Assembly: GCA_965220255.1 (NCBI GenBank)
Contig: OZ244816.1
Span: forward strand, 779,720 to 843,719
Reading direction: 5' to 3'
Origin: Dehalococcoidia bacterium
GTDB lineage: Bacteria > Chloroflexota > Dehalococcoidia > Lucifugimonadales > VXLM01
Length of the DNA: 64,000 bases
Shown: piece by piece, positions 2,585 through 55,268 of the stretch
Layout of the letters: every line of letters begins with the position of its first letter
How positions within the stretch are numbered: position 1 is the first letter of the stretch
Program-made: the position numbers and the translations under genes
The notes under the pieces: model-generated
Seen by the model: only the letters and a program-made list of their open reading frames with translations
Databases searched by the model: none
Told to the model about the DNA's origin: nothing

Positions 2585-3688
2585 CTATTGTACGCTGTTG
2601 GCCAGTTCTTGGAGGACGGCGGCCCACTCGGCCGGGCTGCCTCGTCCGTAGCCGCTACGGTAAGTGATTACGCCGTTCCCGTCGATGGCCACCTTGGTGG
2701 ACTGCTGCGTCACTCTGAAGTCTCTGACCATGTTCCCCACAGCCCTGGCCACCGTACCGGCATGACCGCTCTCGTTCTGGTAGGACTGCAGAACGCTGAG
2801 AGGCTCGTCGAAGGCCACGGCGTAGAGGGCCACCTTGTCCTTGAACTGTGGATAGATCTCCGTCAGGCCCCGCAACGCGGAGCGACAGTCCGGTCACCAC
2901 GTTGCGTGGAACAGGATGAAGACGGGCTTCCCCTGCGCCACAAGGTCGGTGGAACTTACCTGGCTGCCTCCCGCAATGTTCAGGACATAGTCGGGAGCGA
3001 GATTGCCGACATTCGTGCCGGGCTGGGCAGTGACGGCAGATCGAGTCGGCTCAGGTTCCGGAACGGAAGTGGGAGTCGGCGGGACGGGCGTATACGTCGG
3101 GGTGGGCGGCACGGGCGTGTTCGTGGGTGTCGGAGGGACAGGCGTCGGAGTCGGAGGCAGCGGAGTTGGAGTAATCGTAGGCGTGGACGTGGACGTCGGA
3201 GTAGGCGTGCGAGTCGGCCTTGGGGTAAACGTGGGAATGAATGTCGCCGTAGCGGTTGGGGTGGGCTCGGCCGCGGCCTGTCCGTCCGATGTCGATGCGG
3301 GCACTGTGGGCGGGACTGACGTGGGCGTTGCCGTGGGAACAGGTGTTGAAGTTGGTAAGACAGGCGTCGCGGTTGAAGTGGAAGTGGGGACCGTCGTCGG
3401 CGTGGCTGTCGACGGCTCCGTGGTTGCGGTGGGTTCAGGCGTTGGGGGCGTCGTTGGAGTTGGGACCGGAGCCGGGGTTGAGGTCGGCGGCTGAGGCGTC
3501 GGTTCCGTGGTAGCCGTGGGTTCCGGCGTGTTGGTTGGTATTGCTGTAGGAACGGACTGCGCTAGAGGGGTAGCCGGTTCGTCGGCGCTCTCCTCAGGGG
3601 CACTGTCGGACTCGCCGCCGCAAGCAATGACGGCCACCGTCAACATGGTCAGCAGCCAATAGACCGATATGTGGATGAAGCGCTTCAT
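2585..3688 (-). CDS. TlpA/ResA-like thioredoxin-fold lipoprotein with long Pro/Thr linker, predicted selenoprotein (Sec = TGA 2894..2896, motif W-U-P-D-C)
   Basis: ORFs 2894..3688 and 2585..2875 share one frame and are joined only by TGA. Lipobox AVIAC-G. ...GKPVFILFHATW-[TGA]-PDC. The C-terminal half is homologous to the copy at 1731..2018. Confidence 0.7.
2867..2893 (-). other. Putative bacterial SECIS element (same hairpin as 2010..2036)
   Basis: Block cggactgtcgctccgcgttgcggggc is identical in both paralogues while flanking codons differ at wobble positions. Confidence 0.55.
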
Positions 3689-13070: not shown

Positions 13071-14402
13071 CTGACAGGGGTAGGTATTTCGTATTTTAGG
13101 TATCAGTGCCATAGATCATCCTCAGATTTGGCGACGGTTCGGGCCAAGCTTCAGGAAGCAGCCAGACCCTCTGCCACAGCCTGCCTTTGAGCAACAGACG
13201 ATTCAGCCAAATGATGCCCTGACGCAATACGCTTACAATCCGTCTCGGTCTGTTTGTGGCACTTCGATGTGTGGGCGAGACAAACTTCGGAGGCGCTCTG
13301 AGACGACTAGGGTTTACGCCCAAGCCGCTGGCATCTTCGACTCTGGTCCCATATGCCAGCGCCAATAGAGTTGACACAGACAACACCAGCCAATGACGAC
13401 TGACCCGTTCGGGATCTGTCCGGCGAGTCTTCTGCCATTGCCACCCAACGCTCTTGATCGCTTTGAAGCCCAGTTCTATCCAGAAGCGAAGTGCGTACCA
13501 GCACACCCCAGCTTCAGCAGGTGGGAGATCTGTCATCACAACCCATGGCTCTTGTTGGTCTTTGTCCCAGACCACAATCATTGTCCCCCGACGGCGTATG
13601 CTTGTGGCCCTGAACGCGGTCCCACCACCAACCCATGCGTGACCCGGCCCTGGTACGAGATACCGCGCTGGCAGACGAGTCCCTCCATCAGGACAGAAGA
13701 CGGTGTTGATCGACTGTCGTACGTAGGGATGCCACCCCGAAGAGCGTATCTGCTCCCACAACCTCGGACTCCTCAGACCACGGTCGCACATCACCAGCAC
13801 AGTCTTGTCCTTTGGGACCGCCGAAGACAGCAACGCCAGCAAGTCCACCACAGGGGATATCCACTGTCCGGGACTGTTGGCGGGAAGAATGTGCCAGGCA
13901 ACCGGAATGGCACAACTGCGATAGACCACGCTTATGACTATGGAGTTTAGCTTGTCGGCCTTCATCGTCGGGTCTATAGCTAACACTAGCCTGTCCGACT
14001 GCCACAATGACAGTACCCACCTCAACAGCGGAACAAAGCACGACCTCACATCCAATTGCACTTGGCAGGGCTTAGAACGGTCTTGACCATCGTAGAGCCA
14101 CTCTCTGATGTACTGACGCAGACTGTTGTAGTTACCCATAACCGAAAGGGCTGCACTGACAGCGTTCTGGCAACTACTCCCGGCCAGTATGGTCCCGTAC
14201 ACCCACAGAACCAGTCCTTTTATCTGAGAGTGTCTGAGCTGAGGCATGTGTTGTTCGACAGTCTGGAGCATCTGGTAGCATTCAGGTGGGAGGCGCATGG
14301 CGAATCTCTGGCAACCTTTCTGTCTGATACCAAAAAGATGCCAGAAACCCATGCGCTTTCCAAGTTCTTATACTTATTTTATATTTTACCTACCCCTGTC
14401 AG
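13071..14402 (-). mobile_element. Intact IS4-superfamily insertion sequence (1332 bp), 16-bp perfect terminal IRs ctgacaggggtaggta, 11-bp TSD cccccgccggg
   Basis: IRs at 13071..13086 and 14387..14402. Direct repeats at 13060..13070 and 14403..14413. Single transposase ORF. CTGAC termini as in IS10/IS50. Confidence 0.8.
13096..14352 (-). CDS. DDE transposase, IS4 superfamily
   Basis: 418 aa; LAIDPT (D), VLVMCDRG (D), YALRFWIELGFKAIK = Y-x2-R-x3-E-x6-K signature. Confidence 0.85.
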   Translation of the reverse strand: MGFWHLFGIRQKGCQRFAMRLPPECYQMLQTVEQHMPQLRHSQIKGLVLWVYGTILAGSSCQNAVSAALSVMGNYNSLRQYIREWLYDGQDRSKPCQVQLDVRSCFVPLLRWVLSLWQSDRLVLAIDPTMKADKLNSIVISVVYRSCAIPVAWHILPANSPGQWISPVVDLLALLSSAVPKDKTVLVMCDRGLRSPRLWEQIRSSGWHPYVRQSINTVFCPDGGTRLPARYLVPGPGHAWVGGGTAFRATSIRRRGTMIVVWDKDQQEPWVVMTDLPPAEAGVCWYALRFWIELGFKAIKSVGWQWQKTRRTDPERVSRHWLVLSVSTLLALAYGTRVEDASGLGVNPSRLRAPPKFVSPTHRSATNRPRRIVSVLRQGIIWLNRLLLKGRLWQRVWLLPEAWPEPSPNLRMIYGTDT

Positions 14403-24075: not shown

Positions 24076-24223
24076 CCTTTGCATGTGTATTGTAAAGCGC
24101 TTGTCAGTCACCCTGGATACATCTTCACCGGAGACATGGGCAATATCTGGGCGGGTGCGGTCGCAGACACGGCGTGGTACTCTGAAGTGGAGACTTCCCA
24201 GCTGGGCTAGTGAAGGTGAAACA

Positions 24224-24430
24224 ATGCGTCAGGTAGTTCTCCATCCGGGTGAAGACGGCTTTTGGGTTGCCGAATGCCCCAGCCTGCCGGGGTGCATCAG
24301 TCAGGGAGAGACCAAGGAGACAGCCATCGCCAATATCAGAGAGGCGATCAAAGAGTATATCGCGGTTCTCGAGGATGATGGCCTGCCGGTTCCCAAGGAA
24401 CAATTTGAAGCGCTAGTCGTAGCCGTATGA
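24224..24430 (+). CDS. hicB: HicB-like antitoxin (UPF0150 type)
   Basis: MRQVVLHPGEDGFWVAECPSLPGCISQGETKETAIANIREAI; RBS gaaggtga; stop overlaps hicA start (ATGA). Confidence 0.8.
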   Translation: MRQVVLHPGEDGFWVAECPSLPGCISQGETKETAIANIREAIKEYIAVLEDDGLPVPKEQFEALVVAV

Positions 24431-24648
24431 CCCGACTGCCCAGGGTTTCCGGGCGAGACTGTGTTAAAGCTCTCGCTAGAACGGGGTTCTACACCAGACG
24501 ACAGCGCGGCAGTCACATCATCTTGCGTCGCGATGACCCATTCGCTCAACTGGTCGTTCCTGACCATGGGGAGCTTGACAGAGGCACGTTGCGCGCCATC
24601 ATCAGGCAAGCGGGGCTAAGCGTCGAGCAGTTCGTTGAGTTGCTGTGA
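24427..24648 (+). CDS. hicA: HicA mRNA-interferase toxin
   Basis: LPRVSGRDCVKALARTGFY..RQRGSHIIL...VVPDHGELDRGTLRAIIRQAGLS. Confidence 0.85.
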   Translation: MTRLPRVSGRDCVKALARTGFYTRRQRGSHIILRRDDPFAQLVVPDHGELDRGTLRAIIRQAGLSVEQFVELL

Positions 24649-46966: not shown

Positions 46967-47758
46967 ATGAACGGAGACGAAGAAAGGGAGGTCGCAGTGC
47001 TCACGCTACGAGGGCGGGGAGCAATACTGGTAGGCACGAAGCGCGTCGGTGGGGTCATTGCCCACAGGCTGGTGAAGGAGGGCGTCAATCTCGCAATCGT
47101 GTACCGCTCTTCTCGGCAAGAGGCCGAGCGGCTGGAGCGCGAGGTCGGTGGGATAACGGAGCGTACGGCCCTGATCGGCGGCGACCTGAGCGATGAGGAC
47201 GACGTGAAGCGCATCGTGCGGACGGCTAAAGACAGCCTCGGCGACCTGTCGTTCGTGGTGAATCTTGCGTCCGGGTTCCCGCGCAACCCGTTCGAGACGC
47301 TGGACGGTGCTGCTTGGGACGCTTCAATGTCATTCGCCAAGGGAAACTACCTGCTGAACGTACACGCCGCACGGGTGATGATGGAGAACGATGGGCCGAC
47401 CAGGGGACACATCGTGCAGTTCAGCGACTGGGCGGCGTGGGAGACGCCGTATAAGAACTACCTGCCCTACCTGACGGCGAAGGCCGCCATCGACTTCATG
47501 ACCAGAGGGTTCGCGGTGGAACTCGCGGACGCGGGGATTCTCGTGAACGCCATCGCGCCGGGGCCGACGATGCGTCCGCCGGAGATCAGCGAGTCGTCGT
47601 GGCAGCGCGACGTGCTGGACAAGACGCCGCTGAAGCGGGAGTCCTCGCCGGACGACATGGCGGAGATCATTGTGAGCCTGCTTTCGAGCGAGTCGATTAC
47701 GGGGCAGGTGATACGCGTCGATTCGGGACGGCACCTGGCAGGGCCGGGCGTGGACTGA
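46967..47758 (+). CDS. SDR family oxidoreductase, pteridine-reductase-like (FolM/PTR1-like)
   Basis: LVGTKRVGGVIA cofactor loop (K/R-R-x-G as in pteridine reductases), YLTAKAA catalytic Y-x3-K; context next to queD/PTPS and folE. Confidence 0.65.
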   Translation: MNGDEEREVAVLTLRGRGAILVGTKRVGGVIAHRLVKEGVNLAIVYRSSRQEAERLEREVGGITERTALIGGDLSDEDDVKRIVRTAKDSLGDLSFVVNLASGFPRNPFETLDGAAWDASMSFAKGNYLLNVHAARVMMENDGPTRGHIVQFSDWAAWETPYKNYLPYLTAKAAIDFMTRGFAVELADAGILVNAIAPGPTMRPPEISESSWQRDVLDKTPLKRESSPDDMAEIIVSLLSSESITGQVIRVDSGRHLAGPGVD

Positions 47759-47771
47759 CGGAGCCAATCAC

Positions 47772-48179
47772 ATGCCAACGTACAGCGTCACCAAGACCAT
47801 CGCCTTCTGCTACGGCCACCGGCTGATCGGCCACAAGGGGAAGTGCCGCCACCTGCACGGCCATAACGGTCTCGTCGAGATCAACGTCGAGGCCGAGGAG
47901 TTGGACGAACTGGGCGTTGTAATGGACTTTTCAGACATTCGCGATGCCGTCAAGGGATGGATCGACGAGAACCTCGACCACAGAATGATCCTCAACCGCA
48001 AGGACGAAGCGGTCCCCGAGCTGCAGAAGCTGGGAGAACCGCTGTACCTCATCGACGAGAACCCGACCGCGGAGAATATCTCCAAGTTGATATATGGGCA
48101 GGCGCGAGACATGGGGATCAATGTCAAGGAGGTGCGCCTGTGGGAAACGCCCTCGAGCTACGCAGCCTATAGAGAGTGA
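47772..48179 (+). CDS. queD: 6-carboxytetrahydropterin / 6-pyruvoyl-tetrahydropterin synthase family
   Basis: FCYGHRL...KCRHLHGHNG (C-x3-H-G-H), 135 aa. Confidence 0.85.
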   Translation: MPTYSVTKTIAFCYGHRLIGHKGKCRHLHGHNGLVEINVEAEELDELGVVMDFSDIRDAVKGWIDENLDHRMILNRKDEAVPELQKLGEPLYLIDENPTAENISKLIYGQARDMGINVKEVRLWETPSSYAAYRE

Positions 48180-48859
48180 CAATGACGAACACTACTACCG
48201 ACGACCTGCAATCTGAAACCGCCAGCGGTGTGAACGGTCTCCCCAAGGAGGAACGAGTCCGGCGGCTCGTGCCGCACCTCAGGGAGGTCCTTAGTCTGCT
48301 CGGCGAGAACCCCGAACGAAAGGGACTACTCCGCACCCCTGAGCGATGGGCGGAGGCCCTGCTGACCTACACGCAGGGAACGTCGGCGAGTCCCGAAGAC
48401 CACCTGCGGGTGATCTTCGAGATGGACGGCGACGACTACCCCGTCGGGTCCGACGACATGATAATCGTGGACAACATCCACTTCACGTCCACGTGCGAGC
48501 ACCACATGGCCCCCTTCAGGGGGACGGCGCACGTCGCGTACATCCCGAACCCGGAGAGTCGCATCGTGACCGGCCTCTCCAAGATTTCCAGGGTGGTCAC
48601 GCTGTTCGCGAGGCGGCTGCAGATCCAGGAGCGGATGACGCAGCAGATCGCGAGGGCGATCGACGATCACCTCGAACCGCTGGGCGTCATCGCCGTGGTG
48701 CAGGCCGCCCACTTCTGCATGATCCAGCGCGGCGTCGAGCAGCGCGAGAGCACCACCATCACGACCGCTCGACGGGGCGTCTTCCTCACCAAGCCGGAGC
48801 TCGAAACGCGGTTTCTCGAATACCTCAGGATGCAGGACGGCAAGCCGGAAGTTGTGTGA
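48176..48859 (+). CDS. folE: GTP cyclohydrolase I
   Basis: FTSTCEHHMAPFRGTAHVAYIP, ...RLQIQERMT.QIA; 4-nt overlap with queD. Confidence 0.92.
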   Translation: MTMTNTTTDDLQSETASGVNGLPKEERVRRLVPHLREVLSLLGENPERKGLLRTPERWAEALLTYTQGTSASPEDHLRVIFEMDGDDYPVGSDDMIIVDNIHFTSTCEHHMAPFRGTAHVAYIPNPESRIVTGLSKISRVVTLFARRLQIQERMTQQIARAIDDHLEPLGVIAVVQAAHFCMIQRGVEQRESTTITTARRGVFLTKPELETRFLEYLRMQDGKPEVV

Positions 48860-49648: not shown

Positions 49649-49740
49649 GCGTTCAGAGTCGGTGAGAGAAATACCTCGCGCCTTCAGATTCCCGCCCCGT
49701 ATCGCTGTACGGGGTGACGTTCTTTCGCGGGAATGACGGT
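49649..49740. repeat. REP-F-like element (left IR gcgttcagagtcggtgaga + long REP-A 49686..49739), right IR not recognisable
   Basis: Shares left arm and internal hairpin with 12187/37649. Confidence 0.5.
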
Positions 49741-49832
49741 GGGTGGGCTCCCGTTCGGTTCGTGCATGGTTCAGATCTGCTTCGGGTAGGAGCGGCGTAT
49801 GGTACGATGTGCTACCGATCAAGGGAGTCACC

Positions 49833-50876
49833 ATGCCGACGCTTGGACTGATAACGCTCATAGGATCGGGAGAGACCGCGCCGAGCGGTCGCGCACTGTA
49901 CGAACCGGCGTTTGACAGGCTGCCCAAGCCGGTGAAGGTCGCGGTCATGGAGACCCCGGCGGGGTTTGAGTTGAACTCGCCGCATGTGGCGAGTCGCGTT
50001 TCCGAGTTCATCCGGCACAGGCTGCAGAACTACAAGCCCGACGTTACCGTAGTTCCCGCGCGGCGGCGCGATACGGAGTTCGGCACGAACAACCCGGACA
50101 TCCTGCGACCGCTTCTCGACGCCGACTGCATCTTCATGGGGCCGGGGAGCCCCAGCTACGCCGTGCGTCATCTGACGGGAACCTACGCATGGGACATGAT
50201 ACAGGCGCGTCACCGCCTCGGCGCATGCCTGACGTTCGCCAGCAGCGCGGCCATAGCCATCGGCGAGACGGCGGTTCCGATCTACGAGATCTACAAGGTC
50301 GGCGACGATCCTCACTGGATACCTGGGCTTGACCTGCTCGGCCCATTGGGACTCAGGATCGCCTGCGTCACCCACTGGAACAACACGGAGGGCGGCGCGA
50401 ACCTGGACACGAGCCGGTGCTACATCGGAAGGGCCAGGCTAGAGACGCTTCTCCCCGCCCTGTCGGACGGCACGGTCGTGGTGGGAATCGACGAGCACAC
50501 CGCGCTCACACTCGACTTTTCGGAGCGAACATGCAGGGTTCTGGGCAAGGGAACCGTCACGCTCGTTGACGACGGGAAAGAGCGAGTATTCCGGGTCGGC
50601 TCAGACTTCCCCATGAGCGAGCTTGGCGACGTCCGCATACCGGACGATTCGGAGGGCATCCGCCCGGAAGTGTGGGAGGAGATGTCTGATGTCCAGCGGA
50701 CGAGGGACGAAACCACGTCGACACTGCCTGACGAGGCGGCAGCCCTCATCGCCGAGCGCGAGGAGGCCCGACGCATGAAGGACTGGAACAGGGCCGACAC
50801 GCTTCGGGATCAAATTGCCGAATTGGGCTACACCGTGACCGACACGCCCGAAGGGCCGAAGTGGGAGGTCGCTTAA
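49833..50876 (+). CDS. Peptidase S51/cyanophycinase-like (class I glutamine-amidotransferase-fold) domain fused to a CysRS C-terminal-like helical tail
   Basis: Start MPTLGLITLIGSGE (RBS aagggag). FMGPGSPSY and FASSAAIAIGE resemble S51 motifs. The C-terminus EREEARRMKDWNRADTLRDQIAELGYTVTDTPEGPKW matches the last ~45 aa of cysteinyl-tRNA synthetases. Confidence 0.55.
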   Translation: MPTLGLITLIGSGETAPSGRALYEPAFDRLPKPVKVAVMETPAGFELNSPHVASRVSEFIRHRLQNYKPDVTVVPARRRDTEFGTNNPDILRPLLDADCIFMGPGSPSYAVRHLTGTYAWDMIQARHRLGACLTFASSAAIAIGETAVPIYEIYKVGDDPHWIPGLDLLGPLGLRIACVTHWNNTEGGANLDTSRCYIGRARLETLLPALSDGTVVVGIDEHTALTLDFSERTCRVLGKGTVTLVDDGKERVFRVGSDFPMSELGDVRIPDDSEGIRPEVWEEMSDVQRTRDETTSTLPDEAAALIAEREEARRMKDWNRADTLRDQIAELGYTVTDTPEGPKWEVA

Positions 50877-50911
50877 TCTCAGGTGGGCACTACCCGACCG
50901 GAGAAGATGGA

Positions 50912-52849
50912 ATGACGCAGAAACGCATCGCGCCGTACGGCTCGTGGAAGTCACCGATAACTGCAACCGCCATAGCCTCAGAGTCGTTCGGGCTGGCGCA
51001 GGTAGCCATAGACGGCGACGACCTGTACTGGACAGAGACTCGACCGTGGGAAGGCGGACGGAGCGTCATCGTTCGGCAGTCGGCCGACGGCGAGAAGAGC
51101 GACGTGACTCCTGCGGGCTTCAACGTCCGCAACCGCGTTCACGAGTACGGCGGCGGGGCCTTTACGGTGCATGACGGCGTGGTGTACTTCACTAACGACT
51201 CCAACCAGCGGGTGTACGCACAGCGGCCCGGCGAAGCCCCGACTCCTCTGACGCCCGACGACGGACGGCGATACGCCGACCTCGAGGCCGATCAATTACA
51301 CAATCGCATCTTGTGCGTGTGCGAGGACCACTCCCAGCCCGACACTGAGCCGACCAATACCGTCGTCTCCATCGGCAGCGACGGCAGCGAGATCGAGACT
51401 ATCGCCCAGGGCAACGATTTCTATTCCGCGCCCCGTGTCAGTCCAGACGGCGACCGGGTCTGCTGGCTCGCGTGGGACCACCCGAACATGCCATGGGACG
51501 AGACGGAGCTGTGGGTGGCCGACGTGGACGCAGACGGCAGGGCCGAGAACGCGCGACTCATAGCGGGCGACGAATCCATCGGCGAGCCGCTGTGGTCGCC
51601 GGACGGCACGCTGTACTTCGTCTCCGACCGGACGGGCTGGTGGAACCTGTACCGCTGGGACGGTGGGGATTCCGCAACGAACGTCTGCCCGATGGAGGCG
51701 GAGTTCACCGGGCCGCAGTGGCAGTTCGGGGCCTCGCATTACGGACTCGCGCCAGCCGACGAACTCATCTGCTCCTACACGCAGGACGGCTTCTGGCGTA
51801 TCGGACGACTCGACCTGCGTTCGGGCGAGTTTGAGCCGTTCGATCTCCCGTTCACCGACCTGGCGCGTGGCGCGCTTGAGGTAGGCAACGGCTGGGTAGC
51901 GTTCATCTCAGGTTCTCCCACGCAGGCCAAGTCGGTCGTGAAGCTCGACTTGCAGACAGGAGCGCACACGGTCGTCGTGGAGTCGTCGTCGCTGGACGTG
52001 CCCGCGAGCTATTTTTCGGTGCCGGAGGAAATCGAGTTCCCCACGGAGGGCGGCCAGACGGCCCACGCCTTCTACTATCCCCCAACCAACCCCGATTATG
52101 AGGCCCCGTCCGGCGAGCGGCCGCCGATGATCGTCATAAGCCACGGCGGGCCGACGGGGGCGACCTCGGCGACCCTCGACTTGGAGACGCAGTTCTGGAC
52201 GAGCCGCGGATTCGCGGTGCTCGACGTGAACTACGGCGGCAGCACGGGTTACGGGACGGAGTACAGGCGGCGTCTGAACGGGCGCTGGGGCATCGTCGAC
52301 CTCGACGACTGCGTGAACGGCGCGAGGTACGCGGTGTCCTCAGGACGCGCCGACGGAGACCGGCTCATCGTGCGGGGGAGCAGCGCGGGAGGGTACACGA
52401 CGCTGGCGTGTCTGGCTTTCCGCGACGTGTTCAAGGCCGGGGCCAGCTACTATGGGATCGGCGACCTGGAGACGCTGGCCAGAGACACGCACAAGTTCGA
52501 GTCACGGTACCTCGACTCCCTGATCGGGCCATATCCGGAAGAGCTGGACATATACGTTCAACGCTCGCCCATTCACTACGTGGACGACATCACCTGTCCG
52601 GTGATACTGTTTCAGGGGCTTGAGGACGAGATCGTGCCGCCGGATCAGGCCGAGACGATGGTGGAGGCCGTCAAGCGCAAGGGCATACCGGTGGCCTACG
52701 TGGAATTCGAGGGCGAGCAGCATGGGTTCCGCAAGGCAGAGAGCATCGAGGCGGCCCTGCACTCAGAGCTGTACTTCTACTCGCAGGTGTTCGGCTTTGA
52801 ACTCGCGGAGCAGGTCGATCCCGTACCAATACACAATCTCAACGCATAG
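50912..52849 (+). CDS. S9 family serine peptidase (prolyl oligopeptidase / acylaminoacyl-peptidase type)
   Basis: N-terminal propeller-like region, C-terminal alpha/beta hydrolase with nucleophile VRGSSAGGYT, later D and H (EGEQHGF). Confidence 0.85.
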   Translation: MTQKRIAPYGSWKSPITATAIASESFGLAQVAIDGDDLYWTETRPWEGGRSVIVRQSADGEKSDVTPAGFNVRNRVHEYGGGAFTVHDGVVYFTNDSNQRVYAQRPGEAPTPLTPDDGRRYADLEADQLHNRILCVCEDHSQPDTEPTNTVVSIGSDGSEIETIAQGNDFYSAPRVSPDGDRVCWLAWDHPNMPWDETELWVADVDADGRAENARLIAGDESIGEPLWSPDGTLYFVSDRTGWWNLYRWDGGDSATNVCPMEAEFTGPQWQFGASHYGLAPADELICSYTQDGFWRIGRLDLRSGEFEPFDLPFTDLARGALEVGNGWVAFISGSPTQAKSVVKLDLQTGAHTVVVESSSLDVPASYFSVPEEIEFPTEGGQTAHAFYYPPTNPDYEAPSGERPPMIVISHGGPTGATSATLDLETQFWTSRGFAVLDVNYGGSTGYGTEYRRRLNGRWGIVDLDDCVNGARYAVSSGRADGDRLIVRGSSAGGYTTLACLAFRDVFKAGASYYGIGDLETLARDTHKFESRYLDSLIGPYPEELDIYVQRSPIHYVDDITCPVILFQGLEDEIVPPDQAETMVEAVKRKGIPVAYVEFEGEQHGFRKAESIEAALHSELYFYSQVFGFELAEQVDPVPIHNLNA

Positions 52850-52860
52850 AGAAGATCAAC

Positions 52861-53886
52861 ATGGCAGCGTATGAACTAGCGTCCAAGAAGGTCCAACTTC
52901 AAGAGACCGACGATCCCATCGAATACTACTTCGAGCAGGGCTGGACCGACGGTCTGCCGGTCGTCCCTCCGACTGCGGAGAAGATCGGGGCGTTCCTTGA
53001 CGCTGTGGGACGGTCGCCGAGCGAGATACTCGGCACCGAGCCGGTGCGCGGTAGGGTCGTGACGGTCGAGAAGGTCGCCATCAACGCGGTCATGGCGGGA
53101 TGCCGCCCGGAGTATTTTCCCGTGGTGCTCGCCACCATGGAAGCGATGCTGGAGCCGGACCACAACCTCCACGCCGTGACGGTGAGCACGATGGGGGCGG
53201 CGCCGCTGCTGGTGGTCAACGGGCCTGTGGCAAACGAGATTGGGTTGAACTCCGGCGTGTCGGTCTTCGGACCCGGGAATCGCGCCAACGCGACCATCGG
53301 GCGTGCGGTACGGCTCACCATTATGAACGTGACCGGAGCGGTGCCCGGCGACCTCGATCAGTCGAGCCTGGGACACGCGGGGAAGTACACGTGGTGCATC
53401 GCCGAGGACCAGGAGACCAGCCCGTGGCAGGCGCTTCACGTCGACCGGGGCTACGCCTCCAGCCAGAGCACCGTCACGGTGTTTCCCGGCCTTTCGCCCA
53501 TCCAGGTGTCCAACCTCGGGGGCGGTTCGCCGGAGGAGGCGCTGAAGGGCGTGTCGGACGGGCTGATTGTGGCCGGCCCGGGCAACGCCGAGATCGTGGT
53601 CGTGCTCACGCCTGAGACCATCGGACACATCAAGGCCGGAGGATGGTGGAAGGAGCAGGTCGCGCAGTTCCTATGGGAACGCAGCAGACTGACTGCCGGG
53701 GAGTGGGACGATCATGGATATCCCACGGGCAACACCGATGCCGCTGAGCTTGTGGGCGTGACGACAGATTGGGAAGGAATCACGGTCATCGTGGCCGGAG
53801 GCAAGGCGGGATCGTTCTCTGCCGTCATCCCGCTCTGGGGCGGTGGGGCCAACTCGCGCTCCGTCTCGAAGGTGGTCCGGTCGTAG
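52861..53886 (+). CDS. Conserved-looking hypothetical protein (341 aa), partner of the UGSC selenoprotein gene
   Basis: Long ORF with coding-like composition; YYFEQGWTDGLPVVPPT...AINAVMAGCRPEYFPVV; no family name recalled; 11 nt after the peptidase gene and 36 nt before the next gene. Confidence 0.65.
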   Translation: MAAYELASKKVQLQETDDPIEYYFEQGWTDGLPVVPPTAEKIGAFLDAVGRSPSEILGTEPVRGRVVTVEKVAINAVMAGCRPEYFPVVLATMEAMLEPDHNLHAVTVSTMGAAPLLVVNGPVANEIGLNSGVSVFGPGNRANATIGRAVRLTIMNVTGAVPGDLDQSSLGHAGKYTWCIAEDQETSPWQALHVDRGYASSQSTVTVFPGLSPIQVSNLGGGSPEEALKGVSDGLIVAGPGNAEIVVVLTPETIGHIKAGGWWKEQVAQFLWERSRLTAGEWDDHGYPTGNTDAAELVGVTTDWEGITVIVAGGKAGSFSAVIPLWGGGANSRSVSKVVRS

Positions 53887-53922
53887 TATAATGGCCGACA
53901 CGGCCAAGGGAGGTGACATTCT

Positions 53923-54459
53923 ATGACGACGATGTTGGAAGTGTTCGACCCGACGGTTGACCCGATACCCGCGCATGGAGTGGTCGCCAAGCGCCCTGAC
54001 ACGCTGAACGGGGCCGTCGTTGGCCTATTGGCGAATGGCAAGCAGAACGCCGACGAACTCCTCGAAATGGTGCATGACGTTCTCGCCGACCAGTTCGAGT
54101 TCAAGGCCGTCATCGCCCGCAACAAGGGGAACGCATCCCGCCCATGTCCCACGGACATCGTGGACGACCTGGCCTCAAGCTGCGACGTGGTGATCACCGG
54201 GAACGGTGACTGAGGGTCCTGTTCATCGTGCAGTGTGCACGACGGAATCACCCTTGAGAAGGCCGGTCTGCCGACAGCGGTGATCTGCACGGAGCCGTTC
54301 ATACCGAGCGCCCGCGCCATGGCGAAAATCCAGGGCATCCCCGACTATCCGTACATCATCCTTCCGCATCCGCTGGGCAGTCTGACGCCGGGCGAGCTTC
54401 GCAGTCACGCGGTCAAGATTGCCCCCGAGGTGCTGAGCATCCTGCTGGGGAAGGGGTAG
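53923..54459 (+). CDS. UGSC-motif protein, predicted selenoprotein (Sec = TGA 54211..54213)
   Basis: ORFs 53923..54213 and 54235..54459 share one frame. Read-through gives ...VVITGNGD-U-GSCSSCSVHDGITLEKAGLPTAVICTEPF...PHPLGSL. A hairpin lies 12 nt after the TGA. The 178-aa total fits my recollection of the UGSC (seleno)protein family. Confidence 0.7.
54214..54242 (+). other. Putative bacterial SECIS element (12-nt spacer + hairpin ucgugca-gug-ugcacga)
   Basis: Perfect 7-bp stem with G/U loop at the canonical distance from the TGA. Confidence 0.5.
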
Positions 54460-54632
54460 GCGACAGACGCCGACTACCGTCATTCCCACGAAGAGCTTGC
54501 CCCGTACCCAGATACGGGGGAGTCCTTGCATAACCCCCTCTCCCGTTCTTGGGTGAGGGTATAAACCGCCCGCTTCTGTAAGGTGCCTCGCCTCCGACTC
54601 TCGCCCGAATGACAAGTTACGCCAAAGACATT

Positions 54633-54739
54633 GTCATTCCGAGCGGAGCGAGGAATCTAAGGTGAAGTGACGTAGCGTCACGTCTCTCAGGCAAGGACTT
54701 TAGATTCCTCACTTCGCTCCGCTACGTTAGGAATGACAG
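54633..54739. repeat. REP-C inverted pair (gtcattccgagcggagcgaggaatctaa ... ttagattcctcacttcgctcc..ggaatgacag)
   Basis: Same arms as inside the MITEs at 9477 and 34581, but without the ctgacagggg termini. Confidence 0.6.
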
Positions 54740-54832
54740 TGGTCGGAGTTGTGAAAGAGCGAGGATTACTAACCGCTTTCGTGAGCGCCAACACACCCCA
54801 GACGCCCACCAGTTTCGGTCAGACTCAGCCCC

Positions 54833-55204
54833 TCACGCTATAGCGCGCCCAATCGCCAAGCCCGCGAAGGCGGCTGCGAGTCCCACGGCAATGCTGCCGC
54901 CAAGGTTGAGGGCCGCCCGTCCGATGTCGCCCGACTCGAAGCTCTGCGTCGTTGCGACGGCGAGCGTCGAGAACGTCGTGTACGAACCGAGGAATCCTAC
55001 CGCCAAGAACAGCCTGTGCTCGGTGGGAAGGTCGCCTCGCGGCTCCCAGAACGCGATGAGCAGCCCAAGGAGGAACGAGCCCGTGATGTTGGCGATGAAG
55101 GTGCCGACGAGGGTCGAGCCCATGAGGTTCATCACGGCGAGGTTGACGGCGTGACGGGATATCGCTCCGAGCGCGCCGCCACAGGCTACGTACACCCACT
55201 CCAT
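54833..55204 (-). CDS. crcB: Fluoride efflux channel CrcB/FluC
   Basis: Start MEWVYVACGGALGAISRH (ATG 55204, 123 aa); GTFIANITGSFLLG and GFLGSYTTFST motifs. Confidence 0.85.
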   Translation of the reverse strand: MEWVYVACGGALGAISRHAVNLAVMNLMGSTLVGTFIANITGSFLLGLLIAFWEPRGDLPTEHRLFLAVGFLGSYTTFSTLAVATTQSFESGDIGRAALNLGGSIAVGLAAAFAGLAIGRAIA

Positions 55205-55268
55205 AAACGAGATTCCTCCGGCGGCCTGCGTCAGAAGTCCGACGAGGGTAGCCAATCTTGACATTCCC

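Follow-up and report, generated by a model that had tools for sequence, protein, structure and literature searches.

A UGSC-family gene with an in-frame TGA and its conserved partner gene in a Dehalococcoidia genome: a candidate two-component redox enzyme

Introduction

In the literature, the UGSC family appears as the "UGSC-containing protein," a name used in selenoproteome studies of the Olavius symbiont and of GOS (PMC1976440, PMC2398784). The GOS data contained 255 Sec forms of the protein against 21 Cys forms, with the family more abundant in non-marine samples (PMC1976440, PMC2398784), and a Sec form is also known from Hyphomonas neptunium (PMC1976440). A "Trx-like fold" has been proposed for the family, and a "UGSC/Unknown_1 fusion" was mentioned in 2008 (PMC2398784). 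A 2026 review lists the family as uncharacterised (PMC13188914). The original prediction made for the gene considered here described the family as one without an assigned function, which is still its standing in the literature (PMC2398784; PMC13188914).

Here we consider a UGSC-family gene, and the gene directly upstream of it, in a stretch of 64,000 nucleotides from a Dehalococcoidia genome; the whole of this stretch is referred to as the window. The gene is not novel, as selenoproteome surveys of the Sargasso Sea and GOS had already brought the family to light. It is a routine member of a catalogued family, and finding it therefore adds no new biology in itself. What is added here is a SECIS signature, the prediction of a fold other than that of thioredoxin, and a link to a partner protein that is drawn from synteny across lineages and from natural fusions.

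Results

Gene structure and family membership

The original prediction joined two ORFs across a TGA, and translation confirms this arrangement. The ORFs 53923..54213 and 54235..54459 share one frame when read from the sequence, and 53923..54459 (+) translates into 178 residues followed by the terminal stop TAG at 54457-54459, with the TGA at 54211-54213 as the sole internal stop. The context of this codon is VVITGNGD-TGA-GSCSSCSVHDGITLEK. The N-terminus of the protein, MTTMLEVFDPT, aligns with the N-termini of homologues. The features of the gene are as follows.

53908..53915, + strand: Shine-Dalgarno-like GGGAGGTG, 7 nt before the ATG at 53923, read from the sequence
53923..54459, + strand: UGSC-family selenoprotein gene, 178 aa with Sec at residue 97, from the single frame and the family profiles
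54211..54213, + strand: in-frame TGA for Sec (U97) in the motif G-D-U-G-S-C; TGA in 80 of 80 loci, Cys in full-length Cys forms
54220..54222, + strand: codon of Cys100, the invariant partner of Sec in U-x-x-C, from the homologue alignment

Family searches of the joined protein were run with U replaced by C. The NCBIfam model NF041046, "UGSC family (seleno)protein," matched with 155 bits against a curated cut-off of 125 (profile positions 2-146 of 147), and the Pfam model PF24696, "UGSC," matched residues 6-175 with 193.5 bits against a cut-off of 25 (profile positions 1-171 of 172). The family named in the original prediction thus exists, and the joined protein belongs to it over its full length, with both matches above cut-off and spanning both halves. 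On this sequence evidence, the joined ORFs are one UGSC-family gene.

A protein search of 5.8 billion sequences returned 214 homologues, most of which are 98-aa gene calls that stop exactly at ...GD. Gene callers typically yield products truncated at a Sec codon, which accounts for this common end point. One record, P0001, carries Trp at the Sec position; that is, its TGA was read as Trp. Cys occupies the U97 column in P0005, P0025, P0034, P0076, P0095, P0106, P0114, and P0115. The full-length homologues, among them a protein of Nonomuraea sediminis that NCBI names "UGSC family (seleno)protein," span both halves and have Cys aligned to the TGA. Around Sec, the homologue alignment shows G95, D96, G98, S99, C100, and S101 to be invariant, as are N38-G39-K40, K68, T123-E124-P125-F126, and H149-P150 elsewhere in the protein. 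Cys103 (54229-54231) is not conserved in the family, being Ala in P0076-type proteins and Trp in the fusion proteins P0270 and P0302 considered below.

When GTDB was scanned with each species represented by one genome, at least 579 UGSC loci came to light, of which the best 80 were analysed. These best 80 are 42-99% identical to the window gene and come nearly all from Dehalococcoidia, SAR202, or Chloroflexota MAGs, with some from Binatia, Thermodesulfobacteriota, and Nitrospinaceae; two public MAG loci (L001 and L002) share 99% and 96% identity with it. In every one of the 80, TGA stands at the homologous codon, and the sequence after it is conserved and in frame. When 1.84 billion cluster representatives were searched with a profile, 3,523 UGSC relatives emerged, mostly of ~180 aa, with some of ~275 aa that carry a NifU-like CxxC extension. 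The window gene is an ordinary member of this already-known family, from a Dehalococcoidia/SAR202-type genome.

Elsewhere in the window, TGA serves as an ordinary stop for an SDR gene (46967..47758) and a GTP cyclohydrolase I gene (48176..48859). Since the Pfam domains of both are complete to the ends of their ORFs, TGA has not been reassigned in this genome.

Recoding signal

The hairpin that the original prediction pointed out downstream of the TGA is present, and comparison across genomes shows it to be conserved, with compensatory changes and frozen synonymous sites. It is a perfect 7-bp helix (UCGUGCA-GUG-UGCACGA) that begins 12 nt 3' of the TGA, with a loop that begins 19 nt after the UGA.

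54226..54242, + strand: intragenic SECIS hairpin, in which 54226-54232 pairs with 54236-54242 around the loop GUG at 54233-54235

In an alignment of 78 distinct sequences, covering the TGA with 9 nt upstream and 63 nt downstream of it, 99.5% of the cells in the 7-bp helix are paired, compared with only 0.5-69% in shifted-register controls. Two independent compensatory double changes occur in this alignment (G-C to A-U in L036 and C-G to U-A in L032), together with four G-U changes. For the 55 codons of the gene whose amino acid is conserved, normalised synonymous entropy has a median of 0.80, and the hairpin codons have the lowest values in the gene (0.04 for Ser102, 0.10 for Cys103, 0.00 for Ser104, 0.06 for Val105, and 0.29 for His106). 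Ser104 is AGU in 79 of 79 sequences; the adjacent Ser101 uses all six Ser codons. As judged from these alignments, the freezing of synonymous sites is a stronger argument for the hairpin than the pairing changes. Cys-form genes that encode the same S-C-S-V peptide (those of Nonomuraea and others) use other codons, with which the hairpin cannot form. The element is thus missing where Cys replaces Sec and behaves as a bacterial SECIS.

An Rfam search over the region, at the gathering threshold and at a permissive E-value, found no SECIS and no other RNA family, and the fold energy of the 71-nt region is unexceptional (z = -1.37). Support for the hairpin thus comes from comparison between genomes and not from thermodynamics. 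Across the family, the apical loop reads G-U-N, and such a loop 19 nt after the UGA is consistent with the bSECISearch consensus (Zhang & Gladyshev 2005). Taken together, we regard it as nearly certain that the UGSC gene encodes a selenoprotein and contains its SECIS.

A tRNA search of the window gave no tRNA and hence no tRNA-Sec, and none of selA, selB, selC, or selD was seen among the window ORFs scanned. The window does contain a second TGA gene, 2585..3688 on the - strand, for a lipoprotein-like AhpC/TSA-thioredoxin domain protein with the motif W-U-P-D-C at 2894; here a similar 7-bp stem with a GUU loop lies 10 nt after the UGA. This second gene lends indirect support to Sec decoding in the organism. 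The TGA at 24428 (ORF 24083..24619) was also considered as a Sec codon and set aside, as the part upstream of it resembles a complete HicB-type antitoxin and the codon is probably an ordinary stop.

Partner gene and natural fusions

In the window, the UGSC gene is the last of four closely spaced genes on the same strand. The other three are listed here.

49743..50876, + strand: cyanophycinase-like protein with a CysS_C-like tail, from Pfam/NCBIfam
50861..52849, + strand: S9 peptidase, from Pfam/NCBIfam, ending 11 nt before the partner gene
52861..53886, + strand: partner gene, 341-aa protein of an unmodelled family, ending 36 nt before the UGSC start

The cyanophycinase-like and S9 genes overlap by 16 nt, and the sole terminator-like site, at 49693-49716, lies ahead of the four-gene run. 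These two genes (49743..52849) recur as neighbours in only 2-4 of the 80 loci; they are probably co-transcribed in this genome only and fall outside the conserved module.

The partner protein, which carries the motifs GWTDGLPVVPPT and AVMAGC, has no match in Pfam or NCBIfam even at E ≤ 10. It has at least 7,995 homologues, all of them lacking a recorded Pfam domain, and the few that have names are all called "hypothetical protein." Its gene is the sole conserved neighbour of UGSC and is found in 75 of the 80 best loci, which are arranged as follows.

63 of 80 loci: partner immediately upstream of UGSC on the same strand, approximate median gap 77 nt
5 of 80 loci: partner upstream on the same strand, further off
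4 of 80 loci: partner downstream of UGSC on the same strand
3 of 80 loci: partner on the opposite strand to UGSC
5 of 80 loci: partner absent within the ~6-kb flanks of UGSC

Beyond the partner, no gene family appears in more than 16 of the 80 loci. The 150 proteins that flank the pair in 77 loci fall into 111 Pfam families, none of which is found in more than 10 proteins. Some of the operons have peptidases nearby, of type S9 in the window and of types S15 and M24 where the UGSC gene is a Cys form, and a role in proline or peptide metabolism was considered on this basis and rejected as a general rule, as S9 accounts for only 3 of the 150 flanking proteins. Two Cys-form operons have a Trx gene immediately before the partner gene, and nine Dehalococcoidia loci have one nearby; most loci have none. 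In 16 Dehalococcoidia loci, a cysteine desulfurase-like gene is found 1.5-5.4 kb away, on the opposite strand and only in related genomes.

The pairing extends beyond Chloroflexota and to the Cys forms. The operon of Nonomuraea sediminis consists of a thioredoxin gene, a partner gene (42% identical to that of the window), and a Cys-form UGSC gene with overlapping stop and start codons, and a LysR regulator is transcribed divergently from it. Comparable Cys-form partner-UGSC operons occur on other contigs, including metagenomic ones. Furthermore, nine UGSC relatives are 502-657 aa long, and in eight of them the C-terminal part matches the partner family with 31-45% identity (blastp). The fusions P0270, P0300, P0302, P0303, P0319, and P0385 all run in the order UGSC then partner. 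One further candidate, P0079 (296 aa), was dismissed as a partner-UGSC fusion; genuine fusions have the opposite order, and P0079 is more likely a frameshifted gene call through the intergenic region. The natural fusions argue that UGSC and its partner act as one enzyme, and they plausibly correspond to the "UGSC/Unknown_1 fusion" of 2008.

A comparison of partner sequences from the window, Nonomuraea, metagenomes, and the fusions shows a single invariant Cys, C81 in A-G-C; Cys179 is not universal. T110, N143, R148, R151, D166, K175, and E182 are also invariant. An AlphaFold2 model of the partner has a pLDDT of 79.5 and a pTM of 0.84, and its Foldseek matches, to class I fumarate hydratase and Toblerone-fold hydrolases, were rejected because the best TM was 0.26. 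Synteny and fusions together suggest that the two proteins interact physically, and we consider it highly probable that they form an obligate functional pair.

Predicted fold of the UGSC protein

For the UGSC protein, an AlphaFold2 model was made of the Cys homologue P0076, which is 43% identical to the window protein. The model (pLDDT 86, pTM 0.82) consists of five consecutive parallel β-α units. The U/C-G-S-C motif comes straight after strand 3 and forms the start of helix 3; N-G-K follows strand 1, T-E-P-F follows strand 4, and H-P follows strand 5. In the model, the invariant N-G-K, K68, T-E-P-F, and H-P are thus in loops on the same edge of the sheet as U/C-G-S-C. The active sites of flavodoxin- and Rossmann-like proteins sit at that edge of the sheet.

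A Foldseek search of the model against the PDB gave weak matches, with TM up to 0.5, to lumazine synthase, WrbA, flavodoxin domains, RpiB, and PTS IIB, every one of them flavodoxin-like, and there were no thioredoxin-fold proteins among the top 50 matches. Sequence and profile searches of the PDB with the UGSC and partner proteins returned no meaningful match. We predict that the UGSC fold is flavodoxin-like and not thioredoxin-like; the P0076 model and its matches do not support the published proposal of a "Trx-like fold."

Discussion

The UGSC protein is most likely the redox-active U-x-x-C subunit of a two-component enzyme. As an explanation of the locus as a whole, we favour a recoded UGSC selenoprotein that acts with its partner as a two-component redox enzyme, and we think this account probable. 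In this account, UGA 54211 is recoded to Sec by means of the SECIS hairpin at 54226-54242 in the codons that follow, with SelB presumably recognising the hairpin. The product would be a ~19-kDa flavodoxin-like α/β protein, in which Sec97 and Cys100 are predicted to lie where helix 3 begins, on the C-terminal edge of the parallel sheet and inside a conserved pocket, adjoined by the other invariant loop residues (N38-G39-K40, K68, D96, T123-E124-P125-F126, and H149-P150). This protein would work with the product of 52861..53886, the two being a single fused polypeptide in some lineages. The partner, with its invariant C81 and its invariant Arg, Lys, Asp, and Glu residues, could bind or activate the substrate, possibly through Cys81, although its assignment as the substrate-binding subunit is a guess. 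Sec97 could serve as nucleophile or reductant, and the cycle would then end as a Sec97-Cys100 selenenylsulfide that a thioredoxin-type donor might re-reduce. Such a donor is suggested by the Trx genes in some operons and by the Nfu-like CxxC domains that are fused in others. We lean toward the Se-S redox cycle with reasonable, not strong, confidence and offer thioredoxin as the electron donor more tentatively.

It is also possible, although we would stop short of calling it likely, that UGSC and the GWTDGLPVVPPT / AVMAGC protein together form a widespread, previously undescribed enzyme that depends on selenium or on a thiol. Such an enzyme would have a catalytic subunit with no recognisable fold relative in the PDB and would be especially common in marine and aquatic Chloroflexota, and the "UGSC/Unknown_1 fusion" of 2008 may have been the first glimpse of it.

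Alternatively, UGSC could be a dedicated redox helper, akin to a private thioredoxin, rather than the catalytic subunit. It would then keep Cys81 of the partner reduced, or resolve a sulfenate or disulfide that forms there during turnover. The position of U-x-x-C at a helix N-terminus in the model, as in thiol-disulfide oxidoreductases, would suit such a role, as would the single invariant Cys of the partner. The family has been classed with thiol oxidoreductases (PMC2398784), and the fusions are compatible with intramolecular electron transfer. However, the predicted fold is not thioredoxin-like, and a generic reductant would be redundant where the operon already has a Trx gene. In addition, many invariant residues other than Cys lie in the loops around Sec (K40, K68, D96, E124, and H149), which suggests a substrate pocket over a simple surface for disulfide exchange. 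We therefore consider a helper role unlikely, although it is the alternative that fares best.

A related question is whether UGSC is a small, stand-alone homologue of GrdB/PrdB with the same chemistry. In such a mini selenoprotein B variant, the partner would play the substrate-activating role of GrdE/PrdA, and Sec would cleave a C-N or C-X bond reductively in an amino-acid-like substrate. The original prediction had found the C-terminal PHPLG-type segment reminiscent of the glycine/proline-reductase selenoprotein B superfamily. There is weak similarity, in that four GrdB-type models and PrdB match below threshold and with a consistent register: residues 83-157 align to positions 333-403 of the GrdB profile, and residues 86-132 to positions 138-183 of the PrdB profile. 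With this register, U97 would lie close to the Sec of GrdB and PrdB. The scores, however, fall far below cut-off (TIGR01917, E = 1.2e-4 and 21.1 bits against 602.2; TIGR01918, 18.8 bits against 65.45; TIGR04483 for PrdB, 13.8 bits against 300), GrdB/PrdB-type matches at E ≤ 0.05 are limited to 2-3 of 10 UGSC family members, and Pfam GRDB has no match to the UGSC protein at E ≤ 1. The resemblance to GrdB is thus no more than a weak lead. These organisms are not known to be Stickland fermenters, which also counts against the GrdB/PrdB proposal. The two-component architecture and the Trx genes nearby fit it, as does the listing of PrdB, too, as a UxxC selenoprotein (PMC2398784). Proline-specific-type peptidases, namely the S9, S15, and M24 enzymes noted above, stand beside several operons, but with 3 of 150 flanking proteins the association is not general, and the partner is not detectably related to any GrdE/PrdA-type model in Pfam/NCBIfam (E ≤ 10). 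On balance, GrdB/PrdB-type chemistry appears rather improbable.

It is also conceivable that U/C-x-x-C-x-x-C serves as a site for a metal or Fe-S cluster, or passes on sulfur or selenium, instead of performing dithiol/selenol redox chemistry. U-G-S-C-S-S-C resembles the spacing of CxxCxxC metal-binding motifs, some Cys forms end or begin with a NifU-like CxxC domain (TIGR02000, E = 3e-5; P0300), and 16 Dehalococcoidia loci have the cysteine desulfurase-like gene at a distance of 1.5-5.4 kb. That neighbour, however, is encoded on the other strand and occurs only in related genomes. C103 is not conserved (Ala in the P0076 group, Trp in P0270 and P0302), which would leave a metal site with only two ligands, and a CxxCxxC site was rejected for this reason. 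We also know of no description of Sec as an Fe-S cluster ligand. This possibility is accordingly very unlikely. Finally, the proposal that the TGA is a true stop, dividing two unrelated small ORFs or marking a pseudogene made by nonsense mutation or sequencing error, could draw on the 98-aa products ending at the TGA in most public records and on the lack of Sec machinery among the window tRNAs and ORFs scanned, but it is effectively refuted. All 80 loci, even those with only 42% identity, have the TGA at precisely this codon and conserve the second half of the gene in frame; full-length homologues carry Cys there; a hairpin under selection follows directly; and the curated family model covers both halves.

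Returning to the two-component enzyme, the partner link and the predicted flavodoxin-like fold yield a testable two-subunit hypothesis for an abundant environmental selenoprotein. Cultured organisms are available for its study, with the Cys form in Nonomuraea sediminis and the Sec form in Hyphomonas neptunium (PMC1976440). The hairpin is also of practical use. Most public copies of the family are mis-annotated as 98-aa fragments, and UCGUGCA-GUN-UGCACGA, 12 nt after the UGA, offers a clean family-specific signature with which to correct the annotation.

The window gene can be compared with several described systems. Members of the UGSC family are ~180 aa long, contain G-D-U-G-S-C, and mostly have Sec, with a Cys minority; in nothing essential does the window gene differ from them. 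With the fdhF-type bacterial SECIS, its hairpin shares the form of an intragenic stem-loop just 3' of the UGA, where RNA and peptide are both under selection. It differs from that element and from the bSECISearch consensus in its short upper stem of 7 bp, its 3-nt loop, and its lack of the conserved bulged U. GrdB, GrdF, GrdH, and PrdB resemble UGSC in their U-x-x-C Sec motif and, as proposed for UGSC, work with a second protein and thiol-based reductants. UGSC, however, is far smaller, with 178 aa, than GrdB, whose profile has 431 positions; its genomic surroundings are not Stickland operons; and its partner, unlike the pyruvoyl-forming GrdE/PrdA, has no match to any Pfam/NCBIfam family at E ≤ 10. 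The Trx-fold selenoproteins (Trx-like, Prx-like, SelW-like, and DsbA-like), with their UxxC or CxxU motifs, have in common with UGSC a U-x-x-C at the N-terminus of a helix that follows a β-strand, and both groups have Cys-containing orthologues. UGSC departs from them in its predicted architecture, in which this motif would be carried not by a Trx fold but by five parallel β-α units.

UGSC proteins and their partner family

Members of a second protein family are consistently paired with or fused to UGSC proteins:

52861..53886, + (window): 341-aa partner protein encoded upstream of the UGSC gene; family includes this protein, the homologues P0121-P0240, and the genome locus L081:4982-6004; paired with or fused to UGSC

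This partner family is large, with at least 7,995 homologues, and carries the motifs GWTDGLPVVPPT and AVMAGC. No model for it was found in Pfam or NCBIfam and no structural neighbor in the PDB, and a new family definition may be warranted.

Public gene calls for the UGSC family (P0002-P0120) are nearly all 98-aa fragments that end at the Sec codon; the annotation error is systematic and open to correction. The 296-aa P0079 appears to result from a frameshift, with the call starting in the partner gene and continuing across the intergenic region into UGSC.

Homologues with Cys at the Sec position include an actinobacterial type of about 275 aa (P0005, P0025, P0034, and P0095), with a NifU/Nfu-like CxxC domain at the C terminus (TIGR02000, E = 3e-5). 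In the 657-aa P0300, also a Cys form, a CxxC-containing stretch that resembles this domain in sequence is N-terminal instead, followed by UGSC and then the partner. The operons of these Cys-containing proteins are adjoined by a divergent LysR regulator and also by ComA, Peptidase_S15, and RidA genes.

Other features of the window

49743..50876, +: cyanophycinase-like gene (first region, TIGR02069, sub-threshold; C-terminal domain, PF23493, 43 bits)
54629..54741: inverted repeat, long and imperfect, whose arms (54629-54663 with 54697-54741) are 82-87% complementary
13096..14352, -: DDE transposase (PF01609)

The cyanophycinase-like gene has an unusual two-region architecture, in which an S51-type, cyanophycinase-like first region is joined to a C-terminal domain matching the cysteinyl-tRNA ligase anticodon-binding domain; it overlaps the start of an S9 peptidase gene by 16 nt. 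The inverted repeat is intergenic, lying between the UGSC gene and a convergent crcB (54833..55264, -), and may act as a bidirectional terminator or represent an element of the REP/MITE type. The transposase indicates that this Dehalococcoidia-like genome carries a mobile element.

Further in-frame TGA codons

24083..24619, +: ORF with an in-frame TGA at 24428, followed by P-D-C
2585..3688, -: candidate selenoprotein gene with an in-frame TGA at 2894-2896

The TGA at 24428 is disfavored as a Sec codon and is probably an ordinary stop, because the part of the ORF that precedes it resembles what we take to be a complete HicB-type antitoxin.

The gene at 2585..3688 is a candidate for the second selenoprotein gene of the window. 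Its predicted product has a signal- or lipoprotein-like N terminus, separated by a long Pro/Thr-rich linker from an AhpC/TSA-thioredoxin-like domain with the motif F-H-A-T-W-U-P-D-C; with U replaced by C, the product matches Pfam PF00578 (E = 4.5e-13). A 7-bp hairpin, GCUCCGC-GUU-GCGGGGC, begins 10 nt past the UGA and shares its architecture with the SECIS of the UGSC gene.
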